Assembly: GCA_027002375.1 (NCBI GenBank)
Contig: JALWZX010000011.1
Span: 18,317 to 82,316 of the forward strand
From: a candidate division WWE3 bacterium
GTDB lineage: Bacteria > Patescibacteriota > WWE3 > 2-01-FULL-39-13
Length of the DNA: 64,000 nucleotides
Direction: 5' to 3'
Below the pieces are notes generated by a model. That model was not told the DNA's origin. It was given only the letters and a program-made list of their open reading frames with translations, and did no database searches. Positions 18,540 to 38,870 of the stretch are shown one piece after another. The first letter of the stretch is position 1; every line of letters begins with the position of its first letter. A program made the translations under genes and the position numbers.

Positions 18540-18607
18540 TTTCACGCATGAATTGAGTTAATTACATAATAATTAGCGATCATTTATCACTGACTTACAT
18601 AGTGATA
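18540..18607 (-). repeat. repeat family A, degenerate inverted copy
   Basis: gagttaattacataataattagcgat matches the reverse complement of the family A core (atcgctaattattatattgactaactc); remnant palindrome tatcact...agtgata at 18585-18607. Confidence 0.5.
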
Positions 18608-18825
18608 CCTGTGATGATATTCAATACCATTTCTGAAAACTTTAGATTTAGTTTACAAAAATTTTTGTTTTGTACTTATTATCATAGAAAACAATAAATT
18701 TTTGCACGTAACCTCTCATCTCTAAAACACCAATTGCACATTGTCTACCACTCAACTTCCGTACACTTATTTTACACAAACATGGCGTATAAGATATGCG
18801 TAAATTCATGGTATAATTTAATTAA

Positions 18826-21800
18826 TTGAGTATGAACCTGTCCAACATATTTGCAAAAATCAAGAAACGTCTTGCTATTGTCTCGTATTTGCAAAAGTGC
18901 TCTATTTATTTAACAGATATTGCCACCAAATTTTATGCACATTTGTCAAAGCGCTTTTACTGCTATGACAGTGCGAACGCACATATTGCGTTACTCTTAA
19001 GTATCCCTAAACTAATCGAAAAACATCTACAGCGTTCTTTTGCGGTTTTAATAACCCCAGCTAAAACCCTAATGATTTTGCTTCTAATATTATTTTTAGT
19101 GGTCGGTCCATTAACAACAAGCATGTCCTATGCTCAGAAAGAAAACGTGAGAAACAATCAGTCAGTCTACAAGTCTGATACCACTTCTCCTATCAAAAAT
19201 GTGTTACTAGCACTAAAAGACAGTGAAGGCGCCAATAAAGGTGATAAAACAAGTAAAGATATTCAAATTCCCACTACAAAACCACCTTTAGAGCCAGAAA
19301 ATTCAGATAACGTAATTCAAGCAAATAAGCCGATAAAACTTAAAATCAAAGATGAAACCATTAAAGCTAAAAAGTTGAGATACATTGTTGAGCGTGAAAA
19401 AACGCATGAAATGATCGAAGTCACTAGCATAATTGATGATATTAATAACCAGTTGGTATTAAAGCCAAAAAGGGCATTTAGACCGGGAAAATATAAGTTA
19501 CAAGTAGTAGAAAATATAGACGTAGACTCGACCAAAAACGAAAATGTACAAGCAAAGCAGAAAGACGCCAATAACGCACAAACAAAACCAAGCAATAACG
19601 ATCAGTCACCAACAGAACAACCCAATACTGATCGATCGACAACAGACCAAACTGACAACTCGTTAGATGAACAAGTCAACAGTACACAAACAACTGATTC
19701 CCCTTCTCAGCAACCTATATACGAACAAGAATTTTTATGGGGAGTCTTAGCATACAATAGCGACAAGGCACAATACCTATTGTATGAAACCGCTCAATTT
19801 CAAATCGGGGTCCTTGACGAACAAGGAAACATAATTTGCGATGCTGACATCGATTTAACAATCACAAACAAAGATGCAAATCATAAAACCATATTATCAA
19901 CGAAAACAGGCACTATAACTGAAAGCAACGAGTGTATTAAACATGATTTCACTCTAGAACCTGACTACAAGAGCGAATTACAACTCACCCATTCAGGAAA
20001 ATATACGGTAGAAATAACAGCAACAACAAAAAATGGAACATATAAAACAACCGATTCTTTTGAAGTAATAGAACCAGATGATGTTCCGTTTTTAATACAA
20101 AGAAATACGCCAACAAGAGTCTATCCAAAAAAAGATTATCCAGTTGAAATAACAATAATTCCAAATGAAGATTTTAATGGCGAAATTGTTGAAACAGTAC
20201 CAAGAGATTTTCTAATAAAAAGATCATATCTTGGAATTCCATATACAAATATTCAAAAAACGTCAGGAGATAAAAAAATAATATGGAAAATCAAGCTAGA
20301 AAAAGACGTGCCTGTGATTCTCTCTTATAAATACGATGCGCCGAATATATCACCACAATTTTATTTATTAGGTCCGATAGAGTTTGTGAGAACAACTGAA
20401 ACCACTACCCTATCTGATGAACCGAACCAAGATACTGATAATAATCGAAATCTATACAAAGATAATGAGTTAGATAACGCCAAAGATAAAAACAATAACA
20501 AGAACGCCGATAAAAACAACAGTACAAAGAAAAGCGATAATAACCAACAAACCAAGAATAAAAGTCAACAAAATCAAAATCCAAATCAACGAGACCAAAA
20601 TAAAATTAAAAATGTCGAGACTATAAGAAATATTGATATACCCTCGATAGACCTCGAACCAAACAACACCTACGCATCTAAAGTAACGACAAATAAAAAA
20701 GTAATATTTACAGAACAGAGAGAATGGCAGCTTGCCAATGACGCTATCGATGATTATGCAATATACACAGACACAAATGGAACACATGATACTGATAACT
20801 CATCGTACACAGGCGTACCCTTCAACAATCAAGTAGCACAGGGAGGTATCTTTACTCAAAATGCCAACGACATTGATGTAGGTTTAGGTTCTGATGGTCA
20901 CTATTTATTTGGATATGTAATACAGGCTAGAAACGATTCGTATGGCAATCGTATCTCTTATCTGTCTAGGGTCACATTAGACGAAACAGAAAATTTAACA
21001 GGACACGGCCAAGGGTATAGAAGAAACGCAACAAATGACAGATATTACACATACGGATATGGAATTGTAAATGCATCTTCTGGTGATAACATACGTGTAG
21101 AAGTTATTAGACAAGGTGATAATACAGCGTCACACACATTAGAAGCAAACCGATCCTCTTTTTGGTTAGTTAAATTAGACGACGATTGGGCATATTTAAA
21201 GTTACAAGGCCAAGACAATCAATCAACCTCGACTTCCCTGCAAGATATTAACTTTACCACATCGATAGAAAATACAGATACGGATACTTTTGGACACAGT
21301 ACGTCGACAAACTCAAATCAAATTACATTGAAATCATCAGGTCATTACTTGGTCACATACTCTGTAGGTGTTGACGGCGCTACAAGCAGAACTTCTGTAA
21401 CAACAAATTTAGCACTGAACGGTACAGCAATACCACAATCATATGATTACTCATACATACGATCGTTAAACTCTACAACACATGGTACTGCAACAAACAT
21501 GTCGATCATAAACGCATCTGCAAACGACGTTCTAACTTTAAAATGGGGCGCTACTGGTGCACACAGTTCATATGGAACTCAAACAAGATCAGACCGAACG
21601 TTTATTGCAGTTGTTAAATTGCCTGACGATGGCGATTATTTAATGGCACATGACACAAGTGGGACTCAAAACGTAGGCGGGTTAAACAATACGCTAACAT
21701 TCGACACATCAGACGAGGCAGATTCAACTTCTTTTTCATTTAGCACATCAACAGGTACAGCTACAATACAACAAGATGACACCTATTTATTTATGAGTGG

Positions 21801-24800
21801 TGCAAGAAGTAACAGAACAACAGGTACAGCCCGTCTAACAAGTGCGGGTTTATTTTACGTAAATGGGACACAACAAAGTGTTGGAAACACAGGTGTATAT
21901 GTCAGAGGTGATCAAGGTACACCAGACACATTTGATGGAGGCTGGACTGGTGCTGGCATTTTTGACCTGTCACAAAACGATCAAGTAACATTTAGACAAG
22001 TTGATGAAGGTGATAACGGTGGTGACGATAAGTTTGTAGCAAATGCACTCGGTTTAACCGCAATAAACCTAGATACAATCTTAATTCCAGTAACAAACGA
22101 TAGCCCTAATGCACCACAAACACCTTATGTAAATAATGATACAGCTCAGAGTGGGCAAGCTTCCCCTGTTTCTAACTTAACTGATATAACACCTGCGTTT
22201 TCTGCAATTTATGATGATAATGACGCATCTGATACCGCCCCTTTTTACCAAATTCAAGTAGGTGACGATACAGATTGGTCAGATGCACCAGAACTTTGGG
22301 ACAGTAACAAATCTTCTCTAACAACAGCCGTAAACGAAAATTCAAGATCTGAAGATATTATATATAATGGAACAGCTCTAACTGCAGGCTCAACATATTA
22401 CTGGCGAATAAAGTTTTGGGACAATAACGGTGCAGAAGGTGCGTGGTCAGCTACACAGCAATTTAGCATGGCAACAAATAACGATCCAAACGCACCACAA
22501 ACACCTTATGCAAATAACGATACTGCGCAATCCGGTCAGGTATCACCTGTTTATAATTTAACAGATACTACACCGGCCTTCTCTGCGATTTATGATGATG
22601 ATGATACTACAGACAAGGCTTCATATTATCAGTTACAAGTAGGTGACGATACAGATTGGTCAGATGCACCAGAGCTTTGGGACAGCACCAAGACGGCATT
22701 CACAACATCATTAGATGAAAATTCTAGGTCAGACGATATAATTTACGGTGGCTCTGCACTAACACTTGGCTCAACATATTACTGGCGAATAAAGTTTTGG
22801 GACAACAGAGGTGGTGAAGGCGCGTGGTCAGCTACACAACAATTTTCTCTAGCAAGTTCAGTCGGTAATGATGGCGACGTGGCAATTTATCAAGATACAA
22901 ATGGAACACATAATACCAATAATACATCATATACTGGCGTTCCGTTTAATAATGTTGTAACGCAAGACCCAACTTTTTCTCAAAACGCAAATGATATTGA
23001 CGTAAAACTTGTAAATGGTGGACACTATCTAGTTGGTTACAAAGTAGAAGCTCAAAACACATCTTACGGAAACAGAATTGGCTATCTGTCAAGATTATTG
23101 CTAAATAGTACAGAAGAATTATCGGCACATGGGCAGGGTTATAGAAGAGATGCAACGAACAACCGTTACTACGCTTACGGTTATGGTATTATAAGTGCAA
23201 ACGCGAGTAATAATATTAGGGTTGAAGTAATTAGAAACGGTACTAATTCTGCAGAACACGATCTCATTGCAAATAAATCTAGTTTCTGGTTAGCTAAACT
23301 AACAGATTCTTGGGCGTATTTAAGATTACAAGGTCAGGATAATCAAACGACATCGACTTCCCTACAAGATATAAACTTCACAACTTCTATAGAAAATAGT
23401 GATACGAATACATTCGGTCATAGTACATCAACTAACTCAAATCAAATTACTCTAAAACAAGCAGGCCATTATTTAGTTACGTACAATGTCGGTATAGACA
23501 GTACAACAGATAGAACATCTATTACGACAAACCTTGCTCTAAATGGGACTGCGATACCGCAATCATATGGTTACGCTTACGCTAGAGGTTTAAACGGTGC
23601 AACAGATGCAACAGCATCAAACATAACAATAATAAATGCATCCGTAAACGATATTTTAACATTAGAATGGGGCGCAACAGGCGCATATGCAACAAATGGA
23701 TCTCAAACAAGATCAGACAGAACTAGTATTCAAATTGTAAAGCTACCAGACACAGGTGATTATTTGCGAATTCACGAAAATACAGATGGTCAAGATATCG
23801 GTGGTCTAAATAACACAATAACATTTGATACATCAGATGAGGCAGATGCTAACTCTTTCACCTACTCTACCTCAACAAGCCAAACAACAATAAATAAAGG
23901 TGCTTTTTACATTTTTACATCAGGCGCACGGACACATAGAACAACTGGTGGCACAAGGTTAACCTCTAAAGGCGCATTTTTTATAGATGGCACTCAATCA
24001 GACTTAGCTAATACAGGTACTTATATTAGAGGTGTCCAATCACCAAATAATACACTAGATGGTGGTTGGTCAGCCGGCGGAATTCTATCGTTATCAAAAA
24101 ATAACGTTGTTGATTTTAGACAAATAGACGAAGGTGGCAACGGAGACGATGATAAGTTTGTCGCAAATTCATACGGAATAACAGCAGTAAACCTAAATTC
24201 TTTCTATACAATCTCAATATCAGGAACGTGCCAACAATACGATGAATCTACCAATTGTGCAAATGGTGAAACAGTAAAAGTAGCAGTAGACGGCCAACTA
24301 CAATCGCAAACCACAACAACATCATCGGGCACCTTCACAATTTCGGGTATTCCTAAACCAGCGAAAAATTCAGTAATAACCGTATTTCTCGACAATGTTA
24401 GTGATTCGAATGAGGCTGTAACAATAACTAAATACGCTGGCTCAGGTGATATATCAAATCTAAAACTATACGAAGAACATCTTACTTTAGGAAACGAGTC
24501 AAACACATCACCAATATCGAATTCTGATGTTGCCAAATACGACAACTCTGTCTCATCAGATGAAGATATATTTTTCGACGTAGACTCTAGTAATAACTTA
24601 ACGGTCGACTATACAGCACAATCAACACAAGAAAAATTATATGTACTAGCTAACAACACTTTCAGGCCAGATGACACAAATGCAACAACTGTTACTACAG
24701 AAAAAGTAAAAGTAGACGGGGGGCTAACGCTAGATCAAACAACATTCAAGATAACTGGATCTGGTACTGGTTCAAGTGTACCAATAACTTTTGGCTCAAA

Positions 24801-27051
24801 CGGGATTCTAACTGCGAATTCCCCATCAACAGTAGAATTTAGTGGCACATCAGCGACAGAAATTCCGGCATTAACCTATTACAACTTAAAACTAGCACCA
24901 TCAAGTGGCTCACCCACCCACACGCTTGGCACTGCCACATCGCAAACTATAGATATAAACGGCTCTCTAACGATAGGCGATTCTACAAATACAGTAACGG
25001 CAGATCTTGGCACATACTCACCCGCAATAAATATCAATAAAAGTTTAATAGTTAATTCTAACGCCACCATGTCAGGTTCATACTCAAACACTATTAAAAC
25101 CGCAGGTTCGGTAACCGGTGGTGGCGTGATTAACATCTCAGGCACAGGTTCGTTTGAAAATAACGCTTCTGCAAATGTTTCTTTTGGATCTTCAACGGGT
25201 TCTAATAACTGGTCGTTCAGCAATTTAGCTTTCACGAATTCTGTATTCACACCTGTAACAATAACGTTAAATTCGGGTGGTACAGGTACGATTCAGGTAA
25301 CCAATACTCTAACAATCGGCAATTCTGCAGATACAGAGACAACCATTTTAGATAACGAAACAAATGATCGTAACTTAGATTTAGTCGATTTAACAATTAC
25401 TGATAAGGGGGAATTTAAGGCATCTTCGACTTCCACACAAAAAATTGCACAAAACTTTACAAATAATGGTACGTTTACGCCAAACAATTCAACCATAGAG
25501 TTTGATGATTCAACTAAGACTTCCAAATTATTATATTCTAGTAACACAACATTCTATAATCTAACCGTAAATACAGATAATAAACAAATACAATTCGACG
25601 AAACTGAACAAACAAATATAACAGGAACATTAACATTGCAAGGTTCAGCCTGCGGAACTAGCAGAGTACTAGTAGATTCTACAACAGACAACGACCAATT
25701 TGATATAAACGCAACAGGATCAACAACAACAGAATATGTTGATATAGAAGATTCAAATGCAGTAACAGCGCTAACAGCACGAAACGCAACTGAAGATAAT
25801 GGCGGTAACACTAACTGGACAATAATCGCAGGATCTTGTGGTTCAAACACCCCACCAAATGACCCGACATCTTTAACACAGGCTAAAACAGACGATACAG
25901 TTTTAAACACAGGTGACTATACAAACGAAACTTCAATAAAATTTTCTGCATCGGCAAGTGATACTGACAACCCTGATGGCTTAAAATTGTGTGTAGAAAT
26001 ACAACCAGTTGGCACAGCGTTTACAGGCACATCTACACAATGTTCAGACGAACAAACATATACTGGTTCAGCTCTCACATTAACTACAACGATATCTGGT
26101 TTAGATGCAGACGAATCTTATCATTGGCAAGCAAAAATCACAGATACAGCAAATTCTGATTCTAACTGGGTTTCATATGGGGGAAATCTAGAGACGGCTC
26201 GCGATGTAGGCATAGACACAACAGCACCAACCGTTGCAACTATATACGATGGCGATGTTAACGGTGTTGATAAAGAGATTAGCTCGAGCTCCCTATCAGA
26301 ATTATCTGCAAATTGGGATAACTTTGATGCAACAGTATCCGGCATCAAAGAATATGAATATTCAATTGGTCTAACTCAGGGTGGCACAGAAATTCTAGGT
26401 TGGACATCAAATGGAACAAGCACATCAGTAACGGCAACGGGTTTAACATTGCAAACTTCAAAAGTATATTATTTCAATGTAAGAGCAACTGATAATGCAA
26501 GTAATATCTCTAATGTTGCATCATCAGATGGGCAGATTGTAGCACCAAGTTTGCAGTTTTCTGTAACACCACCGACAGTAGAATTCTCTAACTTAAATGC
26601 ATTGAATGGATATTCAGCAGAACAAACTGCAACATTAACTACATCAACTAATGCTTACAATGGGTACGAGATTCGGGCATTTTTGGCTAACTTGCTGACA
26701 TCCAGCGACGGCGTAAACACAATCCAAAACTTTGACGGTGGCACCTACTCTGCCCCTGCTTCATGGGATTCTTCAGATAGAGGTTTCGGATACACATCTA
26801 GCGACACTTCAATACAAGGTGTAGATAAATTTAATTCGTCAACATGTGCAGGGGGCGGAGCCGCTCCTTGTTATGCACCATTTGCAACATCATCACCTGG
26901 CGACATAGTCGCAGATCACGAATCCACAGTAAGCGGCTCCGCGATATCAAATGAGCAATTCAACGTAACTTACAAAGTACAAACTGACTCAACGCAACCT
27001 GCATCTAAATATTCGACAACAGTTATATACGCAATTACAGCTAAATATTAA
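18826..27051 (+). CDS. giant surface adhesin (2741 aa): Ig-like N-region, two blocks of C1q/TNF-like domains, two Fn3-like repeats, beta-helix-like region, Fn3, C-terminal WxL/SCPU-like domain
   Basis: Hydrophobic signal (LMILLLILFLVVGPL...SYA); ~445-aa block duplicated at 708-aa spacing (GHYLVTY motifs); 127-aa repeat ending YYWRIKFWD..G.EGAWS; C-terminus aligns with that of the 28413-29477 product. Confidence 0.85.
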   Translation: MSMNLSNIFAKIKKRLAIVSYLQKCSIYLTDIATKFYAHLSKRFYCYDSANAHIALLLSIPKLIEKHLQRSFAVLITPAKTLMILLLILFLVVGPLTTSMSYAQKENVRNNQSVYKSDTTSPIKNVLLALKDSEGANKGDKTSKDIQIPTTKPPLEPENSDNVIQANKPIKLKIKDETIKAKKLRYIVEREKTHEMIEVTSIIDDINNQLVLKPKRAFRPGKYKLQVVENIDVDSTKNENVQAKQKDANNAQTKPSNNDQSPTEQPNTDRSTTDQTDNSLDEQVNSTQTTDSPSQQPIYEQEFLWGVLAYNSDKAQYLLYETAQFQIGVLDEQGNIICDADIDLTITNKDANHKTILSTKTGTITESNECIKHDFTLEPDYKSELQLTHSGKYTVEITATTKNGTYKTTDSFEVIEPDDVPFLIQRNTPTRVYPKKDYPVEITIIPNEDFNGEIVETVPRDFLIKRSYLGIPYTNIQKTSGDKKIIWKIKLEKDVPVILSYKYDAPNISPQFYLLGPIEFVRTTETTTLSDEPNQDTDNNRNLYKDNELDNAKDKNNNKNADKNNSTKKSDNNQQTKNKSQQNQNPNQRDQNKIKNVETIRNIDIPSIDLEPNNTYASKVTTNKKVIFTEQREWQLANDAIDDYAIYTDTNGTHDTDNSSYTGVPFNNQVAQGGIFTQNANDIDVGLGSDGHYLFGYVIQARNDSYGNRISYLSRVTLDETENLTGHGQGYRRNATNDRYYTYGYGIVNASSGDNIRVEVIRQGDNTASHTLEANRSSFWLVKLDDDWAYLKLQGQDNQSTSTSLQDINFTTSIENTDTDTFGHSTSTNSNQITLKSSGHYLVTYSVGVDGATSRTSVTTNLALNGTAIPQSYDYSYIRSLNSTTHGTATNMSIINASANDVLTLKWGATGAHSSYGTQTRSDRTFIAVVKLPDDGDYLMAHDTSGTQNVGGLNNTLTFDTSDEADSTSFSFSTSTGTATIQQDDTYLFMSGARSNRTTGTARLTSAGLFYVNGTQQSVGNTGVYVRGDQGTPDTFDGGWTGAGIFDLSQNDQVTFRQVDEGDNGGDDKFVANALGLTAINLDTILIPVTNDSPNAPQTPYVNNDTAQSGQASPVSNLTDITPAFSAIYDDNDASDTAPFYQIQVGDDTDWSDAPELWDSNKSSLTTAVNENSRSEDIIYNGTALTAGSTYYWRIKFWDNNGAEGAWSATQQFSMATNNDPNAPQTPYANNDTAQSGQVSPVYNLTDTTPAFSAIYDDDDTTDKASYYQLQVGDDTDWSDAPELWDSTKTAFTTSLDENSRSDDIIYGGSALTLGSTYYWRIKFWDNRGGEGAWSATQQFSLASSVGNDGDVAIYQDTNGTHNTNNTSYTGVPFNNVVTQDPTFSQNANDIDVKLVNGGHYLVGYKVEAQNTSYGNRIGYLSRLLLNSTEELSAHGQGYRRDATNNRYYAYGYGIISANASNNIRVEVIRNGTNSAEHDLIANKSSFWLAKLTDSWAYLRLQGQDNQTTSTSLQDINFTTSIENSDTNTFGHSTSTNSNQITLKQAGHYLVTYNVGIDSTTDRTSITTNLALNGTAIPQSYGYAYARGLNGATDATASNITIINASVNDILTLEWGATGAYATNGSQTRSDRTSIQIVKLPDTGDYLRIHENTDGQDIGGLNNTITFDTSDEADANSFTYSTSTSQTTINKGAFYIFTSGARTHRTTGGTRLTSKGAFFIDGTQSDLANTGTYIRGVQSPNNTLDGGWSAGGILSLSKNNVVDFRQIDEGGNGDDDKFVANSYGITAVNLNSFYTISISGTCQQYDESTNCANGETVKVAVDGQLQSQTTTTSSGTFTISGIPKPAKNSVITVFLDNVSDSNEAVTITKYAGSGDISNLKLYEEHLTLGNESNTSPISNSDVAKYDNSVSSDEDIFFDVDSSNNLTVDYTAQSTQEKLYVLANNTFRPDDTNATTVTTEKVKVDGGLTLDQTTFKITGSGTGSSVPITFGSNGILTANSPSTVEFSGTSATEIPALTYYNLKLAPSSGSPTHTLGTATSQTIDINGSLTIGDSTNTVTADLGTYSPAININKSLIVNSNATMSGSYSNTIKTAGSVTGGGVINISGTGSFENNASANVSFGSSTGSNNWSFSNLAFTNSVFTPVTITLNSGGTGTIQVTNTLTIGNSADTETTILDNETNDRNLDLVDLTITDKGEFKASSTSTQKIAQNFTNNGTFTPNNSTIEFDDSTKTSKLLYSSNTTFYNLTVNTDNKQIQFDETEQTNITGTLTLQGSACGTSRVLVDSTTDNDQFDINATGSTTTEYVDIEDSNAVTALTARNATEDNGGNTNWTIIAGSCGSNTPPNDPTSLTQAKTDDTVLNTGDYTNETSIKFSASASDTDNPDGLKLCVEIQPVGTAFTGTSTQCSDEQTYTGSALTLTTTISGLDADESYHWQAKITDTANSDSNWVSYGGNLETARDVGIDTTAPTVATIYDGDVNGVDKEISSSSLSELSANWDNFDATVSGIKEYEYSIGLTQGGTEILGWTSNGTSTSVTATGLTLQTSKVYYFNVRATDNASNISNVASSDGQIVAPSLQFSVTPPTVEFSNLNALNGYSAEQTATLTTSTNAYNGYEIRAFLANLLTSSDGVNTIQNFDGGTYSAPASWDSSDRGFGYTSSDTSIQGVDKFNSSTCAGGGAAPCYAPFATSSPGDIVADHESTVSGSAISNEQFNVTYKVQTDSTQPASKYSTTVIYAITAKY
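22105..22850 (+). repeat. intragenic tandem duplication of a 381-bp Fn3-like unit
   Basis: Identical DNA tracts such as caagtaggtgacgatacagattggtcagatgcaccaga and ggctcaacatattactggcgaataaagttttgggacaa recur 381 bp apart. Confidence 0.9.
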
Positions 27052-27053
27052 TT

Positions 27054-28352
27054 ATGTGGAATTCAAGCAAAACCTTAAAACAAAAGAAAAATCTAGAAGC
27101 ACAACCACACAAGCGTCGAAAAGTTACCGAGTCTACCAAGTTCAAAAGCGAAACACCACGGACTAAAGCCCGTAGTTTCTTATCGCCAATTACCATATTA
27201 ACTAACCCTATCCACACACTAAAGTGTATGAATTTAAGTTTGGTGACAATAAGGCTAGCACTAATATTGGCTGTTCTTACTTTACTAATTTTATTGTTTC
27301 CGTTAAAAACACAGGCAAAAGATTTGATAATTAAGAATCAACTAGAAAGCGAAAATGCATACATACAAGATAATACACAAAATACACAACAACCTGTGTT
27401 TAGAAAGCCAACAATTGATTCCCACAATGATTTCACAGACAAAACCCTTTCTAACCCACAAGTTAAAGGAAAAGCAGTTTTATCAACAATAGCGATTGGC
27501 GTATCGCCTGCCATAGCTGAACTTCCCGTAGACCCTGTGAAAACTAAAGTTGCGAAAGTATATGTTTTTAACAATACCAATGTGCCACTACCAATACATG
27601 CTTTTTCTGATAATTTTTCTGTAAACGAAATTGTAATAGACAGTACAAAAGACAATTCAAACACTTTCGATGCTTCAAATTGGATAACAATAGACCCACC
27701 TGACTTTATACTTCAACCAAACGAAGAAAAAGAGGTCTATATCTCAATTTCGCCTACACCAAATGCAGAACCAGGTGGGCATTATGCCACCGTTTACTTT
27801 AGACCCTTAATCTCAGAAGAATATATAACCCCAGATAAAACCTACTTAACTGCACAAATTGGTGTATTATTGTTCTTAACTGTTTCAGGAAAAATCAAAG
27901 AATCTGCAAATATTTCTAACTTAACTTTACCTAAATACCCTACGCCAGATAACTTTTTACCAACAGTTTACATACAAAACAACGGAAACATACATATAAT
28001 TCCCAAAGGTAAAATAACAATCAAGGGCTTGTTTAGAAAAACAACACATGAATTCCCAATAGAAAATTCAATAGTTCTACCAAATACAGAAAAAAAGGTG
28101 GTTTCGCATACCAAGGCTTCATTAAAGACGGGACTATATCGAACATATTTTACAGGCAATTATGGTAGCAACAACAAGCCACTGGCCAGTAGCGACAAGA
28201 TATTCTTCGTATTCCCAAACCACAAGACACTTATTACTATATTTATTCTAATAATAGTTACACTTTTAGTTCAAAAGTTTCATAGAAACATACCATTGGC
28301 TATAAAAGTCTTGTTTGGTAAAATTGATGAATACAAAAGTGGCAGGAACTAA
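27054..28352 (+). CDS. DUF916/WxL-interacting-protein-like secreted protein with C-terminal TM anchor
   Basis: IGVSP, ASNWITI, PNAEPGGHYATVYF, NNGNIHIIPKGKI, VLP, G.Y...YG, C-terminal TM followed by basic tail; paralog of 29827-30915; start 27054 or 27228. Confidence 0.8.
   Translation: MWNSSKTLKQKKNLEAQPHKRRKVTESTKFKSETPRTKARSFLSPITILTNPIHTLKCMNLSLVTIRLALILAVLTLLILLFPLKTQAKDLIIKNQLESENAYIQDNTQNTQQPVFRKPTIDSHNDFTDKTLSNPQVKGKAVLSTIAIGVSPAIAELPVDPVKTKVAKVYVFNNTNVPLPIHAFSDNFSVNEIVIDSTKDNSNTFDASNWITIDPPDFILQPNEEKEVYISISPTPNAEPGGHYATVYFRPLISEEYITPDKTYLTAQIGVLLFLTVSGKIKESANISNLTLPKYPTPDNFLPTVYIQNNGNIHIIPKGKITIKGLFRKTTHEFPIENSIVLPNTEKKVVSHTKASLKTGLYRTYFTGNYGSNNKPLASSDKIFFVFPNHKTLITIFILIIVTLLVQKFHRNIPLAIKVLFGKIDEYKSGRN
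27153..27252 (+). repeat. repeat family A copy inside the 5' end of CDS 27054-28352
   Basis: accacggactaaagcccgtagtttcttatcgccaatt...ccacacactaaagtgt...taagtttggtgacaataa aligns with 44431-44533. Confidence 0.85.
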
Positions 28353-28389
28353 TTTTGGTTATTGCCACTTTTGTGTTTTTTAGTAATCA

Positions 28390-28401
28390 AAAAGGAGGTG
28401 A
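28390..28401 (+). promoter_or_regulatory. strong Shine-Dalgarno site
   Basis: AAAAGGAGGTGA upstream of ATG 28413; most genes in the window have no SD. Confidence 0.8.
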
Positions 28402-28412
28402 CTAGTACACAA

Positions 28413-29477
28413 ATGAAAAACAAAAAATTATTTAAAGTTTTTTCTATGTTATCAGTTACTGCGCTCACGCTTTCACAGGTGGCACTTTCCCTGTCTATGC
28501 CAACTGCTCAAGCAGCATCACTGTCTGACGGCTCTGTTTCGCTTAGCGATTCACGACCCAGTCAAACCAATGTTACCTATACATCTTCATTTCAAAATGT
28601 TTCGGCAACATCAATTCAATGTATAGAATTAAACTTTAACACTGTAGCAAGTGGCACAGGTTCAGTACCAACAGGAATGTCTACTACTAGTGCGACATTA
28701 AATAGTTCATCAACATACATAACTCCAGCCAACTGGACTGTTGATGCAACAACCAATGGTACTGTTAAACTAACCTACGCAACTGGCGAAAGTGGAACAG
28801 ACGGTAATATCATATTAGATGGAATCACAAATGGTTCAACGGTAGACACAGGGTATTTCTTGCGATTTACAACATATAGTGATTCTAGCTGTACTACAGC
28901 TGTAGACAACGCAACTATAATGTTCATCTATACTAACGGGCAACTCGTTTCGTTAACGGTAGACCCAACATTGAGCTTTAGCGTTGCTTCAGTAGCCTCA
29001 GGTCAAACAGTCAACGGTGCAACAACAAATGTTGCTACATCAACAACAACAATACCTTTTGGAACAGTAACAACAAGTACAGATGTAGTCGCCGCACACG
29101 ATTTAACCGTCACAACAAATGCAACCAATGGTTATACCTTATATACAAGATATACGGGACAATTAACCAATGGATCAGGTGCAACAATTGATGATGTATC
29201 AGGTACAAACGCAACACCAGCATCTTTTGATACGGGCGAAGCCTTTGGTTATACTACAAACGATGCAACATTAAGTAGTGCACCAGTAGACAGATTTACA
29301 TCTAGCGGTGGTAATAAATGGGCTTCTTTCACAACATCAAATGCAGAAGTCGCATACGCCGATTCAGCAGTAGATACAGACACAACAAGAGTTGGTTACC
29401 AAGTAGGCATAGCCGGAACAACAGAAGCTGGAACCTACACAACAACTGTTGTATATACTGCAACACCTACCTATTAA
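28413..29477 (+). CDS. secreted Thr/Ser-rich subunit with C-terminal WxL/spore-coat-U-like domain (candidate major fibre or surface-layer subunit)
   Basis: Sec signal (MKNKK...TAQA), one Cys pair, VDPTLSFSV, LTVTTNATNGY, AFGY, terminal strand AGTYTTTVVYTATPTY; no TM anchor; start set by SD. Confidence 0.8.
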   Translation: MKNKKLFKVFSMLSVTALTLSQVALSLSMPTAQAASLSDGSVSLSDSRPSQTNVTYTSSFQNVSATSIQCIELNFNTVASGTGSVPTGMSTTSATLNSSSTYITPANWTVDATTNGTVKLTYATGESGTDGNIILDGITNGSTVDTGYFLRFTTYSDSSCTTAVDNATIMFIYTNGQLVSLTVDPTLSFSVASVASGQTVNGATTNVATSTTTIPFGTVTTSTDVVAAHDLTVTTNATNGYTLYTRYTGQLTNGSGATIDDVSGTNATPASFDTGEAFGYTTNDATLSSAPVDRFTSSGGNKWASFTTSNAEVAYADSAVDTDTTRVGYQVGIAGTTEAGTYTTTVVYTATPTY

Positions 29478-29526
29478 AAATAATGTAAATGTAGAAAATC
29501 CTTATCTTGAATTAAAGATAAAAAAT

Positions 29527-29557
29527 AGAAGCCCCGGGCATACGCCCGGGGCTTCTT
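29527..29557. terminator. strong GC-rich hairpin (terminator or mRNA stabiliser; REP-like)
   Basis: AGAAGCCCCGGGC-ATAC-GCCCGGGGCTTCT, 50 nt after the 29477 stop. Confidence 0.75.
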
Positions 29558-29826
29558 AGATAAAACATTCATCATTACCAAATTAAACACCTCCATTCCA
29601 AAACGAAATTCTATGATTCTTCTCGCTCATATCCTTCAACACGAAATACCAGCACCACTTTCAGACCCACCCTCTAAAACGAAGTGCCCCACCACCACTC
29701 GACATCAATTTCAAAACGAGACGTTTTTCACATTTACTTCTCTTTTTCCTACCCTATTGCTACAAAATTTAATTTGTGTAAAATCAAATTACAGTAAAAA
29801 ATATAAATCAAATTATAAATAACCAA

Positions 29827-30915
29827 ATGGCATACAAAACAGTTCCTACCCCAAAGATTAAAACATTTAGTAAGTTAACATTAACTTTAGTACTTTCTAT
29901 TACTATACTTTTGGCGTTAAGTTCCCATTCATTAGCACAAGAAGACACCAACACTCAAGAGCACAAACCAACGCCAGAGCTTATAAACGAAAAGCCATCT
30001 ACCAAAAATGACACAAACACTAACCAAAATAACAATCAAAAAACAGATACTCCTACGGAAGATACGGTCACAGACTCTACCACCATAGCCGTATCGCCAC
30101 CAACATTCGAGTTGGTAACAAACCCAGGCACACAAATCAAAAACACAATAAAAGTTAGTAACCCATCAGACAAGCCTATACATGTAACAACAGACATCAG
30201 AAACTTTGTGGCAGTCGGTGAAGAAGGCGCGGTAAACTTGACAGATGAAGACACAACTTATTCCCTAGCAAAATGGATAACAATAGCACCAACAAATGCA
30301 ACAATAAAACCAAAATCAACAGAAATTTTCACGTTCATAATCAACCCCCCTACGAATGCAGAACCAGGTGGCCATTTTGGCTCAATAGTATTTAGAACTG
30401 GGGGAAATCAAATCAATGAAACTGGTGCCTCAGTTGCACAAGAAGTTGCATCATTAATATTACTAAAGATAGCAGGACCTACTACAGAAAAAGCAACTCT
30501 AGAAGAATTCAAAACAACAGACTCAGTATACCAATCGATACCAATAACCTTTGAATATAAGGTAAGAAACGAAGGTAACGTTCACATTAAACCAACAGGA
30601 AAAATAACCATAACTAACATATTTGGCAAAGAAGTTGATTCATTTGCAGTTCCACCAAAAAATGTATTACCAAGTGCAACTAGAAAAACAGACGTAAATT
30701 ACGATAAAAAAGATTTGTTTGGTAAATACAATGCTACACTGGTATTAACCTATGGTGCAAACAATGAAACATTAGTTTCAAACACAATCTTTACAGTAAT
30801 TCCTGTTAAAAAGGTTGCTGTAGCACTTATAATAACTGCAATAGTCTTGTTCTTACTACTAAAAGGCCGTAAAAGAATATCGATGTCTCTAAAAGTACTA
30901 TTTGGAAAACAATAG
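29827..30915 (+). CDS. DUF916/WxL-interacting-protein-like secreted protein with C-terminal TM anchor
   Basis: Signal peptide (SLA-Q), IAVSPPTFEL, SLAKWITI, PTNAEPGGHFGSIVF, NEGNVHIKPTGKI, NVLP, GKYNATL..YG, C-terminal TM and basic tail. Confidence 0.85.
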   Translation: MAYKTVPTPKIKTFSKLTLTLVLSITILLALSSHSLAQEDTNTQEHKPTPELINEKPSTKNDTNTNQNNNQKTDTPTEDTVTDSTTIAVSPPTFELVTNPGTQIKNTIKVSNPSDKPIHVTTDIRNFVAVGEEGAVNLTDEDTTYSLAKWITIAPTNATIKPKSTEIFTFIINPPTNAEPGGHFGSIVFRTGGNQINETGASVAQEVASLILLKIAGPTTEKATLEEFKTTDSVYQSIPITFEYKVRNEGNVHIKPTGKITITNIFGKEVDSFAVPPKNVLPSATRKTDVNYDKKDLFGKYNATLVLTYGANNETLVSNTIFTVIPVKKVAVALIITAIVLFLLLKGRKRISMSLKVLFGKQ

Positions 30916-32239
30916 TGAAATGACCCATAAAGAACTCTATGAAATTCGCCGGGTTAAGGCCTGTGGCTTCTCATCGCTAATTATTATGTTGACCAACTCT
31001 ATCCAAGCACTAAAGTACGTGGTTTTAAGTTTGTCGATAATAAACACATTTTTATTATCTGTATTATTCACTACATCATTTTTGCTAACTTTATTTAGCA
31101 CTTTAATCACGATTTCTCCCACATCTATACACGCCCAAACACCAATAACAGTTTCATTAGACATATCAGACACAATATTAAGAATTCAAGGCTATGCGAG
31201 TCCGTATGCAAACATAACATTTATAGAAAATGAAGCAGTTATAGGCACTACTCAGGCAAATGTTTATGGGGAATTCAACAAAAATATTACATACGAAAGT
31301 GAAGGTATACACACTGTTTCATTTTATTCTACAGATCAAAACTCAAGCACATCGAGTACAATTACAATAACAGTTGCTGTATACACGCATGCCGTTACAA
31401 CCATTGAAGACATATTAATTCCACCAACGATAGATATAGATAACCCTATTCATACAACTAATTCAGAAGAAATTATCACTTTTAGTGGTCAAGCGACACC
31501 AAATACAACAATAACATTAATATCTGGGGGGCTATCGAAACAAACACAAACTCTAGTAACAGGCAACTGGAAAATTACATTTACAGGTGATCAGTTCACA
31601 ATCGGAACTCACACAGCAATTACCAAAACACAAAAGTTAAATGGCACATTAAGCGAAAATTCAAAAACTATTACTTTCAAGATTAACGAATACATCCCAC
31701 CTGAACCTGAACCAACACCTATACCTACCCCAGAAGAAACTACAGAAACATCAAAAAGCAAAAGTGATGAGACTAAGGGAAATGACGACGAAGACAAAAA
31801 AGAAGACAATACTGAGAACAAAGATACAAATATAGTTAGCAAAATCATAACTAAGATAAATGAAATAATTAACGGTAATGGCAATTCTGAGATTGAATAT
31901 TCATGCAATCTACACCCTTACTTAAAAAACTTTGACTATAATGGAAATTGTTTCATACCACATCGAACAGAAGAATTCGTAAACACTGTAACATACTGGA
32001 CTAAAAACTGGCGTGAAACAACAACCGCCATAAAGGGCTTCTTCGCAAACATTAATGCAGGTGAAAATTTAGACAACCTATCACCAAACGAAAAGCAAAA
32101 ATTAGAAAAAGAGATTAAACGATGTGACCTTGACAACGACAATTTATGCACACTTAAAGACTTTTCGATACTATTATATTATACTAATAACATCGAAGTT
32201 ACAGTTCAAACTGACAAAAGTCAGGATATAAGAAATTAG
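30902..32239 (+). CDS. secreted Ig-like-domain protein with Pro linker and C-terminal dockerin-like domain
   Basis: IQGYASP and FSGQATP Ig-like starts, PPEPEPTPIPTP linker, two EF-hand-like loops DYNGNC and CDLDNDNLCTLKDFSILLYY. Confidence 0.75.
   Translation: MENNSEMTHKELYEIRRVKACGFSSLIIMLTNSIQALKYVVLSLSIINTFLLSVLFTTSFLLTLFSTLITISPTSIHAQTPITVSLDISDTILRIQGYASPYANITFIENEAVIGTTQANVYGEFNKNITYESEGIHTVSFYSTDQNSSTSSTITITVAVYTHAVTTIEDILIPPTIDIDNPIHTTNSEEIITFSGQATPNTTITLISGGLSKQTQTLVTGNWKITFTGDQFTIGTHTAITKTQKLNGTLSENSKTITFKINEYIPPEPEPTPIPTPEETTETSKSKSDETKGNDDEDKKEDNTENKDTNIVSKIITKINEIINGNGNSEIEYSCNLHPYLKNFDYNGNCFIPHRTEEFVNTVTYWTKNWRETTTAIKGFFANINAGENLDNLSPNEKQKLEKEIKRCDLDNDNLCTLKDFSILLYYTNNIEVTVQTDKSQDIRN
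30941..31043 (+). repeat. repeat family A copy inside the 5' end of CDS 30902-32239
   Basis: gggttaaggcctgtggcttctcatcgctaattattatgttgaccaactctatccaagcactaaagtacgtggttttaagtttgtcgataataa aligns with 44431-44533. Confidence 0.85.
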
Positions 32240-32245
32240 TGGAAC

Positions 32246-32360
32246 ACCGACAGCTTATGCAGTCGGCATTTTGCGTTTATCTCGCCAAAGCTGGTTAGGC
32301 TACGCAAAACAATCTCATCTGATTGTTTACACAATCATGTTGAAGTTATGAATAGTAAAA
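32246..32360. repeat. repeat family B copy filling the dockerin-cohesin intergenic gap
   Basis: accgacagcttatgcagtcggcattttgc...ggctacgc..aaacaa...catctgattg...caatca...agttatgaatagtaaaa aligns with 60633-60744. Confidence 0.85.
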
Positions 32361-32364
32361 TATA

Positions 32365-33504
32365 ATGAAAATACATGGTTTATCTTTAGCATTAAAAATA
32401 GCAATAATACTGATCGGCTCATGGCTCTTAATACATGGTTTAGCTTCTTTGGGAACCTTTTTAGCGCTAGCCTACCCAATCTGGTGGATACTAGCTCCAA
32501 AAAAAACGTATTGCATAGCATGTCGTGCGCAAAAAGAATCTGGCTACTGTAGCTTTTGCGAAGAACCAATAAAACCACGCCAACTATATCCAAAGAACTT
32601 AAGATCTGCCATATTGAATGCAATAACGATACTATTTCTTTCTTTATTTTCTATATTTGTCGTTTATATAGAATCACAAATAATTCAAAAAGTAATAAAT
32701 ATTAACACAGAAAAAACTGTAACATTCTCAATTAATGACAAAGGCCAATATAAAATGGGTGAGATATTTTCTATGGATATAGAGATAAGCGGTGTTCAAA
32801 AACCAGTAAACGCAATACGTGCAGACGTACAATTTGATCCAAAAAGACTAGAAGTAGTAAACATATCAACAGAAAATTCGTTCGCAGATATATTCATACA
32901 AAAAGAATATGACAATGAAAAAGGGTTCGCACGGTTAACTGGTGGTCTACCTAACCCAGGCTACAATGGCAACAAAGGTCTATTCGGTACTATCTACTTT
33001 AAATCTAAAAAAGCGGGTTTAACAGAGGTAAAATTTTTACCGACATCATTAGTCCTAGCAAACGATGGTCATGGTACAAACATATTAAAAGCACCGGAAT
33101 CAGCATTGTTTTTAATACTGCCCGAAACGATTTCCGCATACGAATCAAAGAAACAAGAAGTTATATTAAAACCATTAGTATTGGGAACTCAAACCGATAA
33201 GACAAAAGATCAACTACATCTTTACGATACTAAAACACACGATATCTCATCATCAGTCTTGGGAATGCAAGTAGAGCAACTAGACGAAAACGCTAAAAAC
33301 ACAGATCAAACCTCAGGCACACAAAATCAACAGGCAAATCAAAGTGAAAAGAATACCTATAAAAAAACTACGCGAACAAAGACAAAACAATTAGCACAGG
33401 TCACGCAAGACAATCAAACAGAAGAACAAAATATATTACAAAAAATACTAACCTACCTACATAAAATCGATATTTTTATATTAAGTATCTGGCAAATATT
33501 TTAG
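32365..33504 (+). CDS. membrane-anchored cohesin-domain protein with CxxC-CxxC loop
   Basis: Three hydrophobic segments around CIAC...CSFC, then cohesin-type motifs GEIFSMDI, VNAIRADVQFDPKRLEV, GTIYFKSKKAG, VLANDGHGTNIL. Confidence 0.8.
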   Translation: MKIHGLSLALKIAIILIGSWLLIHGLASLGTFLALAYPIWWILAPKKTYCIACRAQKESGYCSFCEEPIKPRQLYPKNLRSAILNAITILFLSLFSIFVVYIESQIIQKVININTEKTVTFSINDKGQYKMGEIFSMDIEISGVQKPVNAIRADVQFDPKRLEVVNISTENSFADIFIQKEYDNEKGFARLTGGLPNPGYNGNKGLFGTIYFKSKKAGLTEVKFLPTSLVLANDGHGTNILKAPESALFLILPETISAYESKKQEVILKPLVLGTQTDKTKDQLHLYDTKTHDISSSVLGMQVEQLDENAKNTDQTSGTQNQQANQSEKNTYKKTTRTKTKQLAQVTQDNQTEEQNILQKILTYLHKIDIFILSIWQIF

Positions 33505-33592
33505 GCAGTTTGCGCTGTATTAAATGTGTACGCAAAATCTACAGCACTAGCGCCTTCTCTATTCTCACAACATGCTCTCTACCTTAAAGATA

Positions 33593-33673
33593 AAACTCCA
33601 CTGGATAATGCCCGCGGTTTCGCATCGCTAATTATTATATTGGCTAACTCCAACCACGCGCTAGTTTGGGAAA
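33593..33673 (+). repeat. repeat family A copy between convergent genes
   Basis: gcccgcggtttcgcatcgctaattattatattggctaactccaaccacgcgctagtttgg. Confidence 0.75.
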
Positions 33674-33674
33674 C

Positions 33675-36600
33675 TCAGAAAATTTTTGTATCCTTCTCAT
33701 CTTTATATATCACATAATACAAAACTGGTATAAAAAGAAGCATAACAGTACCTGAAAATAGCAGTCCAGAAATAATAGCTCCACCTAAACCTCTCCAAAC
33801 TGGGTCAGAAATAGTTATGGGAATCAACCCCATTAATGTAGTTAATGAGCTTAATGCAATTGGCTCTAGCCTGCTTGCCGATGCATCAGAAATTGCTTCT
33901 TTTAGTTTCATGCCAGCAAACTCATTTTGCTTAATTTTCTCTACCAACATTATAGAATTGTTAACAACAATTCCAAACAAAGCCAATAAACCAATCAACG
34001 CAGGAAACGACAAAGGCGTGCCAGTTAAAGCAAATATAACAAACACTCCTGAGATCGCCAAGGGTATTACCATAAAAACAATAAAAGATTTTCTAAATGA
34101 TCCTAATTGAATAACCATTGTAATTATTATCAAGATCGCAGATATTATCATTGCTTCTATTATAGATTTAACAGACTTCTTATTCTCTTCATTTGCTCCA
34201 CCTGTTTTCCAAGTGTAGCCTTTTTCTAGTCCTAGTTCGGTAGAAGCATATTTTTCTACTTGTTTATTCAATGTAGGTGCAGAATACCCATCTGCCACAG
34301 AAGCTGTAACATACACTACCCTTTCGCCGTCTTCATGTGTTATATCAAATGGGTTTTCTTTTAACGTAATAACACCGAGAGATGATATTGGCATATATCC
34401 GCTTTTGGTTGGAATATAAATTCTATCTATATCTTCTGGTGTTTGAACATCAGTAGACGTTTTTAACACTATATCTTCATCATCAATGTAAACTGTATCA
34501 ATTGTTCCTAAATTAAAACCACTTGCAAAAGTTCTCAACCAAAACCCTACTTCTTTATTTGTTAATCCTAATTCACGCAATTTAGCTTCATTTGGCACGA
34601 AAGTTATCTTTCCTAAAGACGATTTGGCAGATTTTTCGGCATCATAAACACCTTGCATCATATTCATATAATTGACCAACTTATCAGCATAGCTATTAAC
34701 CTTATCTAAATCATCACCCAAAACCCTAATCTCTAAATCTGCGCCAACAGGTGGTCCACCAGAAATTTCTTTAACAGCAATATCACCAGCCGAAAAATCT
34801 GCCAACTTACCACGAAACGTTTCTGCTATCTCAAATGATGTTTCACCTCTCATATCACTATCTACGAGTTTCACAGAAATCAAAGCCTCATTAGATGACC
34901 CACCCCCGACAGACAGCATCGACTCAGCAAAAACCTTACCTACTTCAACAACCATATATTTTCCAACCTTTTTATACTCGGGCATACTCCTTAATTCGTT
35001 AGCCACTTTAAATGCACTTTCTCTAGTAATATCTAACTTTGTTCCAGATGGCATGGTTAATTGCACATATACAACGTCTTCATCTTTTTTGGGAAATAAT
35101 TCGTTCTCAACAAATCCCATCGGCACGAGTAAATACGAAAACAACGAGAACCCTAACACAACAACTAGCACCGTAACCCACGACTTTTTATTATTTAATA
35201 TCTTTTCAATAAACACTTTGTAATATTGGGAAATACCACCCAAATCTATAAACCCAACGGATATTTTATGTGAAATCCAACCAAGATATTTGTTCTTTTC
35301 AAGTCTATTAGTAAAATTTCGTAAAACAGTCACTATATCGCTACTACCATAGTCGTTTGAATTTGCATTAATATTTTTATCATCTTTAGAGTTGGCTTTT
35401 GAATTCATGTCAGAACTGCCTGAATCACCAGAGTTAACCCTTGAATTCTCCCTGTTAAAATTCGTGTCTTTCTTGATAAACAACCTAAACACAGCAACAA
35501 GCAAAATGTAAACCAAAAGAACAAATGGCAACATAATGCTTTTACCGACGAAAATACCAAGTAGAATTCCAATAAATAAAATAATCGAACTGTAAGCAAA
35601 CAACTTAACCCTGTCAGGCAATCGTGGCTTTAGAAAAATAATCATCAATGGTAGCGTAACAAGCACTGCAACGCTTGTTGATGCTAATAAAGTAGTAGAC
35701 ACGACAATGGGAATCGATTTTATAAATGACCCAATTACTCCTGTTGACAACAGCAAAGGTAAAAATGCCCACACAGTAGTTAATGTAGTTGTCCAAATTG
35801 GAACTATAAAATCACGCCAAACCAATGCACCTGTTTGCCTTTCATCAAACTTTCCTGTTCTGTGGTACCTTGTCATCGCAGAAACAATAACAATCGCATC
35901 GTCAACAACCAAACCAAGAGCCAACAACAACGAAAACATCGTCAAAAAGTTTAATGACAACCCAGCAAATTTCATAACAGCAAAAGCAATCAAGAATGTT
36001 AACGGAATACTAAATGAAGCTACACTGGCCTGTCGAATTCCCAGAAATACAACTAAAACAATAAATACTAATAAGAGAGTCATAATAAAATTACTGGACA
36101 ATGTGTCGAATTGATCTGCTATTAAATTCGCCGAATTATCAATGTCTGCAACTGTAAAACTACCATCGTATTCTGCTAGAGTAGAGTCGACAACCTCTTT
36201 AATATCATAATAAGTATCTTCAACCGGCTGATTTATTCTTTTATAAACACTAAAACTAACGGCACGACTAGCCTCGCCATTTTCTCCTATAACATATGTC
36301 GCCGTAATTTGATCTTTTGGCGCTTCAACAACATCTGCCACATCAGACAGAACAACTTGCGCAGGCGTACTAGGCATTGGCGATTCAGCAACTTCAATAG
36401 AATTAGCCGGGTCAACAACTCTTTGTGTAGCTCCTAAATCTAAAACCATATTTCTAATGTCATCGACACTAACAATGGTAGAATCTAGTGTTACCGAAAA
36501 GGAATTTCTACCAGTCTCTACACTACCAGCTGGATAACTTTTTAATTGGGAATCAATCAAAGATGCAAGTTGAGCCGGGTTCAAATTGTATTGTTGCAAT

Positions 36601-37229: not shown

Positions 37230-37306
37230 TTTAAAATTGAAAGAGAGTTAAACTAACTATATTGCTTGAATTACAGGCATAGAGAATTTCATGCGTCGAA
37301 AAAGCC

Positions 37307-38710: not shown

Positions 38711-38776
38711 ATCTAATGAAATATAGCGTAATCGGATAACAATAGCAATATTACTTAAATCATAATCATACAAATT

Positions 38777-38870
38777 AAACTCCTCGAGCTGAAACCCGTT
38801 AGTTTTATCGCTAATTATGGCTAACTCCATTTACGCATTAAAGTGCGGGTTATGAGATTGGCGACAATAA
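38777..38870 (+). repeat. repeat family A copy overlapping the 3' end of the HelD-like gene
   Basis: gagctgaaacccgttagttttatcgctaattatggctaactccatttacgcattaaagtgcg...gattggcgacaataa. Confidence 0.75.

Follow-up and report, generated by a model that had tools for sequence, protein, structure and literature searches.

A candidate Pam-type pilus locus in a WWE3 bacterium, with a probable dockerin-cohesin anchor at the pilus base

Our interest in the locus described here comes from the question of how bacteria that are ultra-small and depend on a host locate that host and keep hold of it. The window is a stretch of 64,000 nucleotides (positions 18,317 to 82,316 of contig JALWZX010000011.1) from a candidate division WWE3 bacterium, whose genome assembly (GCA_027002375.1) amounts to 811 kb in 77 contigs and is 76% complete. 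Between positions 18826 and 33504 of the window, we observed six nearly abutting open reading frames (ORFs) in the same direction, labelled A to F in gene order. We propose that A-F encode a donor-strand pilus of the Pam type whose base is held by a dockerin-cohesin pair, and we give this whole model a probability of about 0.7; for its pilus part our confidence is high. A preliminary description of this DNA had presented the six genes as an undescribed surface-fibre system, and all six ORFs and every motif that it quoted were recovered in the translations. The features are as follows, with positions in the window and lengths in amino acids (aa):

18826-27051, + strand: A, ORF of 2741 aa; secretion signal at about aa 83-103, N-terminal module that is conserved, cargo that varies, stalk of FN3-like type and, at the C-terminus, an acceptor domain of the Pam type
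20743-24216, + strand: cargo of A, two blocks of ~445 aa around two FN3-like domains
26545-27048, + strand: acceptor domain of A, lacking a donor-strand pattern ahead of it
27054-28352, + strand: B, membrane-tethered PamC/D-like chaperone; probable start ATG 27228, a repeat (27138-27267) overlapping the 5' extension
28392-28400, + strand: strong Shine-Dalgarno-like sequence AAGGAGGTG, preceding ATG 28413 of C
28362 (ORF start) or 28413 (ATG, giving 354 aa) to 29477, + strand: C, shaft pilin of the Pam type with two domains; signal peptide and N-terminal beta-sandwich, then a donor linker (~28941-28964) and an open acceptor domain at the C-terminus
29527-29556, + strand: perfect 13-bp GC-rich hairpin 3' of C (-37.1 kcal/mol for 126 nt, z -8.5)
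29827-30915, + strand: D, membrane-tethered PamC/D-like chaperone of the DUF916 family
30902-32239, + strand: E, putative terminator; signal peptide; at the N-terminus a lone donor strand (31136-31171); then two Ig-like domains, a linker and a degenerate dockerin (~31904-32197); no C-terminal membrane helix
32365-33504, + strand: F, N-terminal membrane segments, cohesin domain (~32704-33126), C-terminal amphipathic-looking tail

The Pam pilus was described in Ca. Mycosynbacter amalyticus and other candidate phyla radiation (CPR) bacteria (Troman et al., bioRxiv 10.64898/2026.03.03.709456, PMC13278184). Cryo-electron microscopy (cryo-EM) revealed two-domain pilins joined by a donated linker strand, with PamA/B forming long fibres (PMC13278184). 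From models, the same authors proposed that two chaperones carry membrane helices at their C-termini, that PamT is a tip with an acceptor only, and that PamR, built from a strand at the N-terminus, a pair of FnIII-like domains and a membrane helix, acts as the terminator; the Pam loci lie beside ATP synthase genes (PMC13278184). As a Pam reference set, we used 12 high-scoring loci above the cut-off of NF058581, the NCBIfam model for the C-domain of Pam pilins. The nine of these 12 that were checked all lie beside ATP synthase genes, matching the Pam paper.

In profile comparisons, the C family matched the ~350-aa pilins of the reference loci at 99.68% (E 1e-25) over 300 columns and both domains. 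The B and D families each matched the reference chaperones at 100% (E 2e-42 and E 3e-61, respectively), and the E family matched the membrane-anchored, PamR-like gene after the chaperone at 66.7% (E 5e-5). C matched the PamT-like set as well (72%), the C-domain being what both have in common, and the tail of A matched the ~350-aa reference pilins at 93.3% and the short PamT-like proteins at 20.6% only; the remaining pairs among these sets did not exceed 3.1%. With NF058581 itself, C scored 31.2 bits against a cut-off of 55, with full coverage of the model. A search of the genome gave 34.5 bits for C and 21 bits for the A tail, and none of 14 control genomes matched. Among 401 genomes of the phylum, 118 matched NF058581 at E<=0.001, 36 of them above the cut-off, and many of the matches close giant ORFs of up to 6452 aa. 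By these profiles, C is a full-length relative of the Pam pilins of Patescibacteria. The word "undescribed" was thus mostly wrong: with a pilin match of 99.7% and chaperone matches of 100%, the locus reads as a variant of the published Pam pilus.

The AlphaFold2 model of C, built from 117 sequences (pLDDT 95, pTM 0.69), contains two beta domains and an unpaired extended linker. The closest pilin-like structural matches of its modelled C-domain were TLP-1b (Z 8.6, rmsd (root-mean-square deviation) 2.8, 140 residues aligned) and Csu (Z 6.7, rmsd 3.5, 117 aligned), both of which form donor-strand fibres. Foldseek, queried with the two-domain model of C and not with the C-domain alone, returned only generic beta-sandwich matches with low TM-scores, and PDB sequence searches with C and with its C-domain gave nothing significant. 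The likeness to Csu-type subunits raised earlier appears in the model comparison, in a non-specific Z range, and not in Foldseek. The strong ribosome site in front of C and the hairpin behind it fit C as the major subunit, as expected from such features. The hairpin is likely an mRNA stabiliser or partial terminator favouring this subunit; among 11 homologous loci, few had a clear counterpart of it. Promoter and terminator counts were at chance level.

The last ~165 aa of A and C align with a local score of 176, compared to a maximum of 81 in 200 shuffles, and the two tail families match at 98.6% in profile comparison, in agreement with the common C-domain noted in the preliminary description. 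In front of this domain, A has no donor-strand pattern (SSDGQIVA-PSLQF, compared to NGQLVSLTVD-PTLSF in C). The pattern, alternating hydrophobic residues before P-x-L-x-F, was found in none of 16 giants, in 28 of 39 shaft-size pilins and in 2 of 15 short forms; these counts took in only proteins with a recognisable P-x-L-x-F anchor, and so simple an anchor misplaces some. Because the pattern is absent from the giants, A appears to be acceptor-only, as a tip requires, and its sequence makes it likely the tip adhesin of the pilus. Pfam recognised two FN3-like domains and weak BclA_C matches in A. The two cargo blocks (C1q/BclA-like modules) are 67% identical to each other and the FN3-like domains that they enclose 78%; the C1q label is an unconfirmed lead. 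Compared with the giants of 15 fetched loci, the N-terminal module, the stalk and the tail of A were common to its relatives, and its middle cargo matched none of them. A search of an atlas with the late region of A gave weak leads only.

A copy of the cargo, 70% identical, was present in another giant of the same genome that has a different tail. This protein of ~1590 aa (contig C65, 12013-16797, - strand) carries the A cargo at 60-70% identity and another C-terminal domain without a match to the Pam profile. The protein may represent another family of subunits and point to cargo exchange between giants. Four CPR genomes (G237, G208, G079 and G170) each encode seven to nine proteins ending in a Pam C-domain, many of 800-6400 aa, and these sets look like repertoires of alternative tips.

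B and D were confirmed as paralogues (alignment score 342, compared to a maximum of 92 in shuffles), and both end in a C-terminal membrane helix. Their earlier designation as a DUF916-like pair stands for D, which scored just above the cut-off of PF06030 (27.6 bits against 27.3), but B had no match to this Pfam family. Among 34 CPR chaperones scanned out of 90, 23 matched PF06030 at E<=0.01, seven of them at or above the cut-off, including 13 of the 15 from Pam reference loci at the E-value threshold; DUF3324 (PF11797) was weakly detected in one of the 34. At the level of sequence, the CPR and WxL chaperones are related; the kinship of the pilins was judged by Pfam profiles only. In 18 chosen loci of this subtype, the window included, the chaperone that follows the giant was closer to B in 15 of 15 cases and the one that follows the shaft pilin closer to D in 20 of 20, a few by small margins. 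This pattern suggests that B is likely dedicated to the tip and D to the shaft pilin.

E-type proteins open, past the signal peptide, with one amphipathic strand, and Pfam recognised a bacterial Ig domain in E. In a predicted complex between the acceptor domain of C and the strand and Ig domains of E, the score was 0.86, compared to 0.01 for the best control. Of 157 solved complexes, 116 attained the mark used for this score, as did 2 of 215 mismatched pairs; these counts hold only roughly with our own alignments, and likeness to solved donor-strand complexes may raise the value for E and C. The runs agreed on at least 97% of contacts, with a partner pLDDT of at least 92, and placed residues 4-15 of E between the strands 184-193 and 309-322 of C. 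E is thus predicted to cap the pilus base as a likely terminator, its strand filling the groove of C.

The tail of E gave no Pfam dockerin match in this copy, and 6 of 13 E homologues did match. The best PDB match of the E-family tail alignment was the dockerin 2y3n_B (E 9e-12), followed by calmodulins, and the family consensus holds two DxNxDG repeats, the duplicated Ca-loop/helix. By sequence, the tail of the family is a dockerin, of which the window holds a degenerate copy. In F, the Pfam cohesin domain (PF00963) scored 34.3 bits against a cut-off of 24.1. The domains of the dockerin-cohesin pair proposed earlier are thus seen in F and, at the level of the family, in the tail of E. With our own profiles, we detected one dockerin and one cohesin in the genome, at its 76% completeness. 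F is likely the membrane socket for the E dockerin. A CxxC...CxxC loop between its membrane segments (window 32500-32560, residues 50-65) is kept in 119 of 120 homologues; it is likely a cytoplasmic metal site and could regulate the anchor.

To survey the anchor, the 401 genomes were searched with the Ig part of E only, and 77 distinct homologues were classified in 60 regions around the best matches. Six homologues that were incomplete or lay close to the end of a contig were excluded, although a cohesin was seen for two of the six, and 71 remained; the dockerin and cohesin profiles used here were built from the same loci. A cohesin gene starting within 2.5 kb downstream was found for 50 of the 53 homologues with a dockerin tail and for none of the 14 with a membrane-helix tail; two others were Ig-cohesin-helix fusions, one with a further cohesin, and two had neither tail. 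Restricted to the 33 pilus loci, with chaperone and pilin upstream, the downstream cohesin was present in 21/21 dockerin-tailed and 0/10 helix-tailed cases, the other two being fusions. None of 57 dockerin-tailed E homologues had a C-terminal hydrophobic membrane helix, and the genes after five helix-type E's were unrelated (CHASE twice, Pif1, PIG-L, IS200). These gene patterns suggest that the dockerin-cohesin pair likely replaces the usual membrane-helix anchor of the pilus base.

Two E homologues (L008:11982-13340 and L017:1223-2794) carry, in fusion, a cohesin-like domain plus a membrane helix and have no dockerin, a third form of anchor. At L042, L046, L053, L059, L061, L062, L065, L066, L073, L075-L079 and L085, an Ig-dockerin gene is accompanied by up to three cohesin genes (at least one) and often has a giant ORF as neighbour, and neither pilin nor chaperone was detected in the vicinity. 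In such pilin-less loci, several E homologues have another N-terminal extension with an FN3-like domain. These genes may represent a wider CPR surface-display module of Ig-dockerin and cohesin.

We also analyzed the conservation of the gene order. A scan of named genomes with the C alignment returned 15 loci, ten of which have the order A-B-C-D-E (C is doubled in two of them, and another ORF is added in one), and F follows in six of these ten; the neighbourhood is thus co-conserved, as the system proposed in the preliminary description implies. Of the remaining five loci, three are cut by contig ends or broken and two come from a metagenome-assembled genome (MAG) titled Acidimicrobiales. The named homologues of the locus proteins are from Patescibacteria (WWE3, Shapirobacteria, Beckwithbacteria). 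C was matched in 5 of 60 sampled relatives and in none of 11 of its own family, and this patchiness suggests transfer or loss.

The Acidimicrobiales MAG (G435, ~3 Mb, 58% GC) gave 48 matches to the C-domain alignment, mostly in proteins of 450-700 aa, and two chaperones 41% and 28% identical to D. These genes stand among housekeeping genes of actinobacterial character: next to dnaE are an A-like giant, two pilins and two chaperones, next to metH and lipA one pilin and one chaperone, and other pilin-family genes lie beside cytochrome oxidase genes of actinobacterial type (regions L109:6992-19899, L110:8415-10614 and L111:2931-17287); no E-like terminator matched in this MAG. It holds an expansion of this pilin family outside CPR and, as a single MAG, argues against a system exclusive to CPR. 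On a Deinococcus plasmid (L099:5935-6831) and a Clavibacter plasmid (L098:5920-6975), chaperones matched the B/D profile at ~1e-39 and stand beside small secreted-looking genes; these are possible usher-free pilus loci outside CPR and Bacillota.

In the model that we propose, all subunits carry signal peptides, and Sec would export them. With its C-terminal helix as a tether, chaperone B would occupy the domain that lies open at the C-terminus of A. Because A has no donor strand, it could only start a fibre and would therefore end at the tip, where, judging from its sequence pattern and gene order, it would display its swappable cargo. Chaperone D would prime the pilin C, and every C that joins would place the linker between its two domains in the groove of the subunit before it, by homology with PamA/PamB as seen by cryo-EM. 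E, with a donor strand and no acceptor domain, is predicted to fill the groove of C and end growth. E lacks the helix of PamR, and its dockerin would bind the cohesin of F, probably with calcium. The link between E and F would then be a strong non-covalent anchor, made without an usher or a sortase step. Overall, the earlier proposal of subunits with dedicated membrane chaperones, a tip adhesin and cohesin-dockerin attachment fits everything tested here, the attachment being read from gene patterns.

Several observations weigh against this model. Neither C (31-35 bits) nor A (21 bits) reaches the NCBIfam Pam cut-off of 55 bits, the A domain matches the short PamT-like proteins poorly, and the match between E and the PamR-like gene reaches only 66.7%. 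The Pam comparison was made with the 12 reference loci and not with PamA/B/C/D/R of M. amalyticus themselves, and the PamA/PamB structures (PDB 25PZ, 25QA) were never among the PDB matches, probably being absent from the copies searched. The Z values of the C-domain are common among unrelated beta-sandwiches, a glycosidase domain also reaching Z 8.7. The E dockerin has one clear repeat, with a degenerate first repeat and an insertion of ~35 aa, and its model (pLDDT 82.6) found no PDB fold match at E<=0.001. On a tree of 36 E proteins, the tail label needs four changes (three to five in bootstraps) and well-supported branches force only one; a single origin of the helix type was not rejected (approximately unbiased test, p-AU 0.307), and the anchor pattern may thus rest on few evolutionary events. 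Many Ig-dockerin and cohesin pairs have no pilin or chaperone detected nearby, and because of these pairs the dockerin-cohesin module is not pilus-specific. Finally, the pilus is known here from genes and predicted structures.

Some of these points serve a different reading, in which A-D form a Pam-type pilus and E-F, as a companion of the locus, serve surface display or scaffolding in general; the pilus would be chaperone-held or shed, and the E dockerin would bind F for another purpose or, here, not at all. The pilin-less pairs, the degenerate dockerin of the window, the Acidimicrobiales genome with its pilins and chaperones and no E match, and one locus (L033) in which E-F lies upstream of A-B-C-D all favour it. 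We consider it unlikely given the predicted insertion of the E strand into C (0.86 vs 0.01), the PamR-like position of E right after the chaperone, and the mutual exclusion of membrane helix and dockerin at the E tail. Cohesins and dockerins are best known from cellulosomes, which would suit a mini-cellulosome-like scaffold gathering catalytic proteins. This possibility is largely excluded by the family scans, which found no catalytic domain in A-F, by the single cohesin and single dockerin of the genome, and by the homology of pilin and chaperones to Pam. A last alternative is a short fixed surface stalk of one A, one or a few C, E and F, comparable to the static platform that an older model assumed for WxL clusters: by its length, A could reach out unaided, and the subtype is known here from genes and predicted structures. 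The donor and acceptor parts of C, the long fibres formed by its relatives PamA/B (PMC13278184), and the strong ribosome site and downstream hairpin that single out C make such a stalk quite improbable.

If the pilus with a dockerin-cohesin base is correct, the locus offers a complete and testable parts list for a CPR pilus, with cohesin-dockerin used as a pilus anchor, a use that we did not find in print, and with modular tip cargo as a candidate for host specificity. The locus also connects two preprints of 2026 (Pam and WxL), each calling its pilus confined to one phylum. More broadly, at about even odds in our judgement, the clip of Patescibacteria would be an exchangeable, possibly releasable pilus anchor combined with giant swappable tips. 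Pam and WxL would then be two branches of one usher-free family with DUF916 chaperones and three interchangeable anchors (membrane helix, sortase and cohesin-dockerin), reaching beyond CPR and Bacillota, as in the Acidimicrobiales genome.

No W-x-L motif was found in the last 60 aa of any of A-F, as noted before. The reported absence of LPxTG proteins and sortase stands for the locus, where no C-terminal LPxTG and no sortase were found in A-F, but A has a single internal LPxTG (residue 1640) and three sortase-family genes above the cut-off lie elsewhere in the genome (contigs C29, C59 and C45). The absence of an usher was also confirmed, with no Pfam/NCBIfam match to usher families in A-F or the four flanking ORFs scanned. 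A dispersed repeat of ~120 bp overlaps the 5' parts of ORFs B and E, with copies also 3' of E and F. Because of this overlap with the 5' extensions, the true starts of B and E are probably later than their ORF starts. Dispersed repeats of ~75-160 bp mark the gene junctions of the locus (27138-27267, 30936-31059, 32232-32373, 33590-33663 and 18546-18702), with matches on 7-30 contigs. The - strand at 33675-38830, 38850-41114 and 52886-55048 encodes an AcrB-family transporter that has a membrane-fusion partner and converges on F, a motor of the HelD-like kind, and a weakly matching VirD4/TraD-like ATPase. Large surface-type proteins with DNRLRE/CBM96 domains are encoded at 4405-11211 and 42090-44144, both on the - strand, and the one of 2268 aa is unlike A.

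Compared with the Pam pilus, the locus has the same two-domain pilin with an inter-domain donor linker and an open C-domain, two chaperones with a C-terminal membrane helix, an acceptor-only tip, no usher, and a donor-only terminator with two Ig domains placed right after a chaperone. In contrast, the tip is here a 2741-aa adhesin with variable cargo in place of the small PamT, and a single shaft pilin stands in place of PamA/B/E. At its end, the terminator has a dockerin where PamR has a membrane helix, and the next gene encodes a membrane cohesin. The pilin is also under the NF058581 cut-off, and no ATP synthase genes are among the annotated neighbours of the locus. The main text of the Pam paper does not contain "cohesin", "dockerin", "WxL" or "DUF916" and mentions a co-located "tail fibre-like protein" once (PMC13278184). 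We found no paper joining CPR pili with cohesin-dockerin, in a search that reached neither subscription journals nor bioRxiv supplements, and neither a giant tip with its own chaperone nor the Pam-WxL chaperone link was found in the literature searched.

The elr WxL cluster of Enterococcus faecalis has been shown to be a donor-strand pilus guided by a chaperone, with an adhesin at the tip, a membrane chaperone of the DUF916 type and a terminator bearing LPxTG; in the accessible part of that preprint, the system is called confined to Bacillota, and Pam, CPR, cohesin and dockerin are unmentioned (Sleutel et al., bioRxiv 10.64898/2026.10.17.759780). As far as this part describes the WxL/Elr pilus of E. 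faecalis and other Bacilli, our locus resembles it in the large tip adhesin with a C-terminal acceptor-only domain and variable payload, in the DUF916 chaperone with a C-terminal helix and in the donor-only terminator. It differs by having no Pfam WxL match and no C-terminal LPxTG at the locus. WxL membership of the pilin and tip domain, as in the "WxL/SCPU-like subunits" of the preliminary description, was rejected by Pfam, PF13731 being found in 0/117 and 0/120 members and giving no match at the locus in the genome search. Plasmid searches for WxL loci of Bacilli yielded Actinomycetota and Deinococcus records only; the C-domain alignment gave a profile match of 1.1% to the small gene beside the Clavibacter DUF916 gene, which is not an established WxL protein.

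With chaperone-usher pili (Pap/Fim, archaic Csu) and TLP-1, a donor-strand fibril (PMC11494351), the locus has in common the donor-strand complementation of an incomplete Ig-like fold. It differs in having a two-domain pilin and no usher or soluble periplasmic chaperone, and the matches are at fold level only. With cellulosomal and non-cellulosomal cohesin-dockerin systems, it has in common the Pfam cohesin in F and the duplicated Ca-loop/helix dockerin motif in the E family. Unlike in cellulosomes, the pair would here hold the pilus base on a membrane protein instead of gathering enzymes, and the dockerin is degenerate. Taken together, these comparisons suggest that the locus works like the Pam and WxL pili and is best filed as a Pam variant, not as a WxL member: the pilus core is already known (PMC13278184), and what would be new here is an anchor variant, not a new class of pilus.

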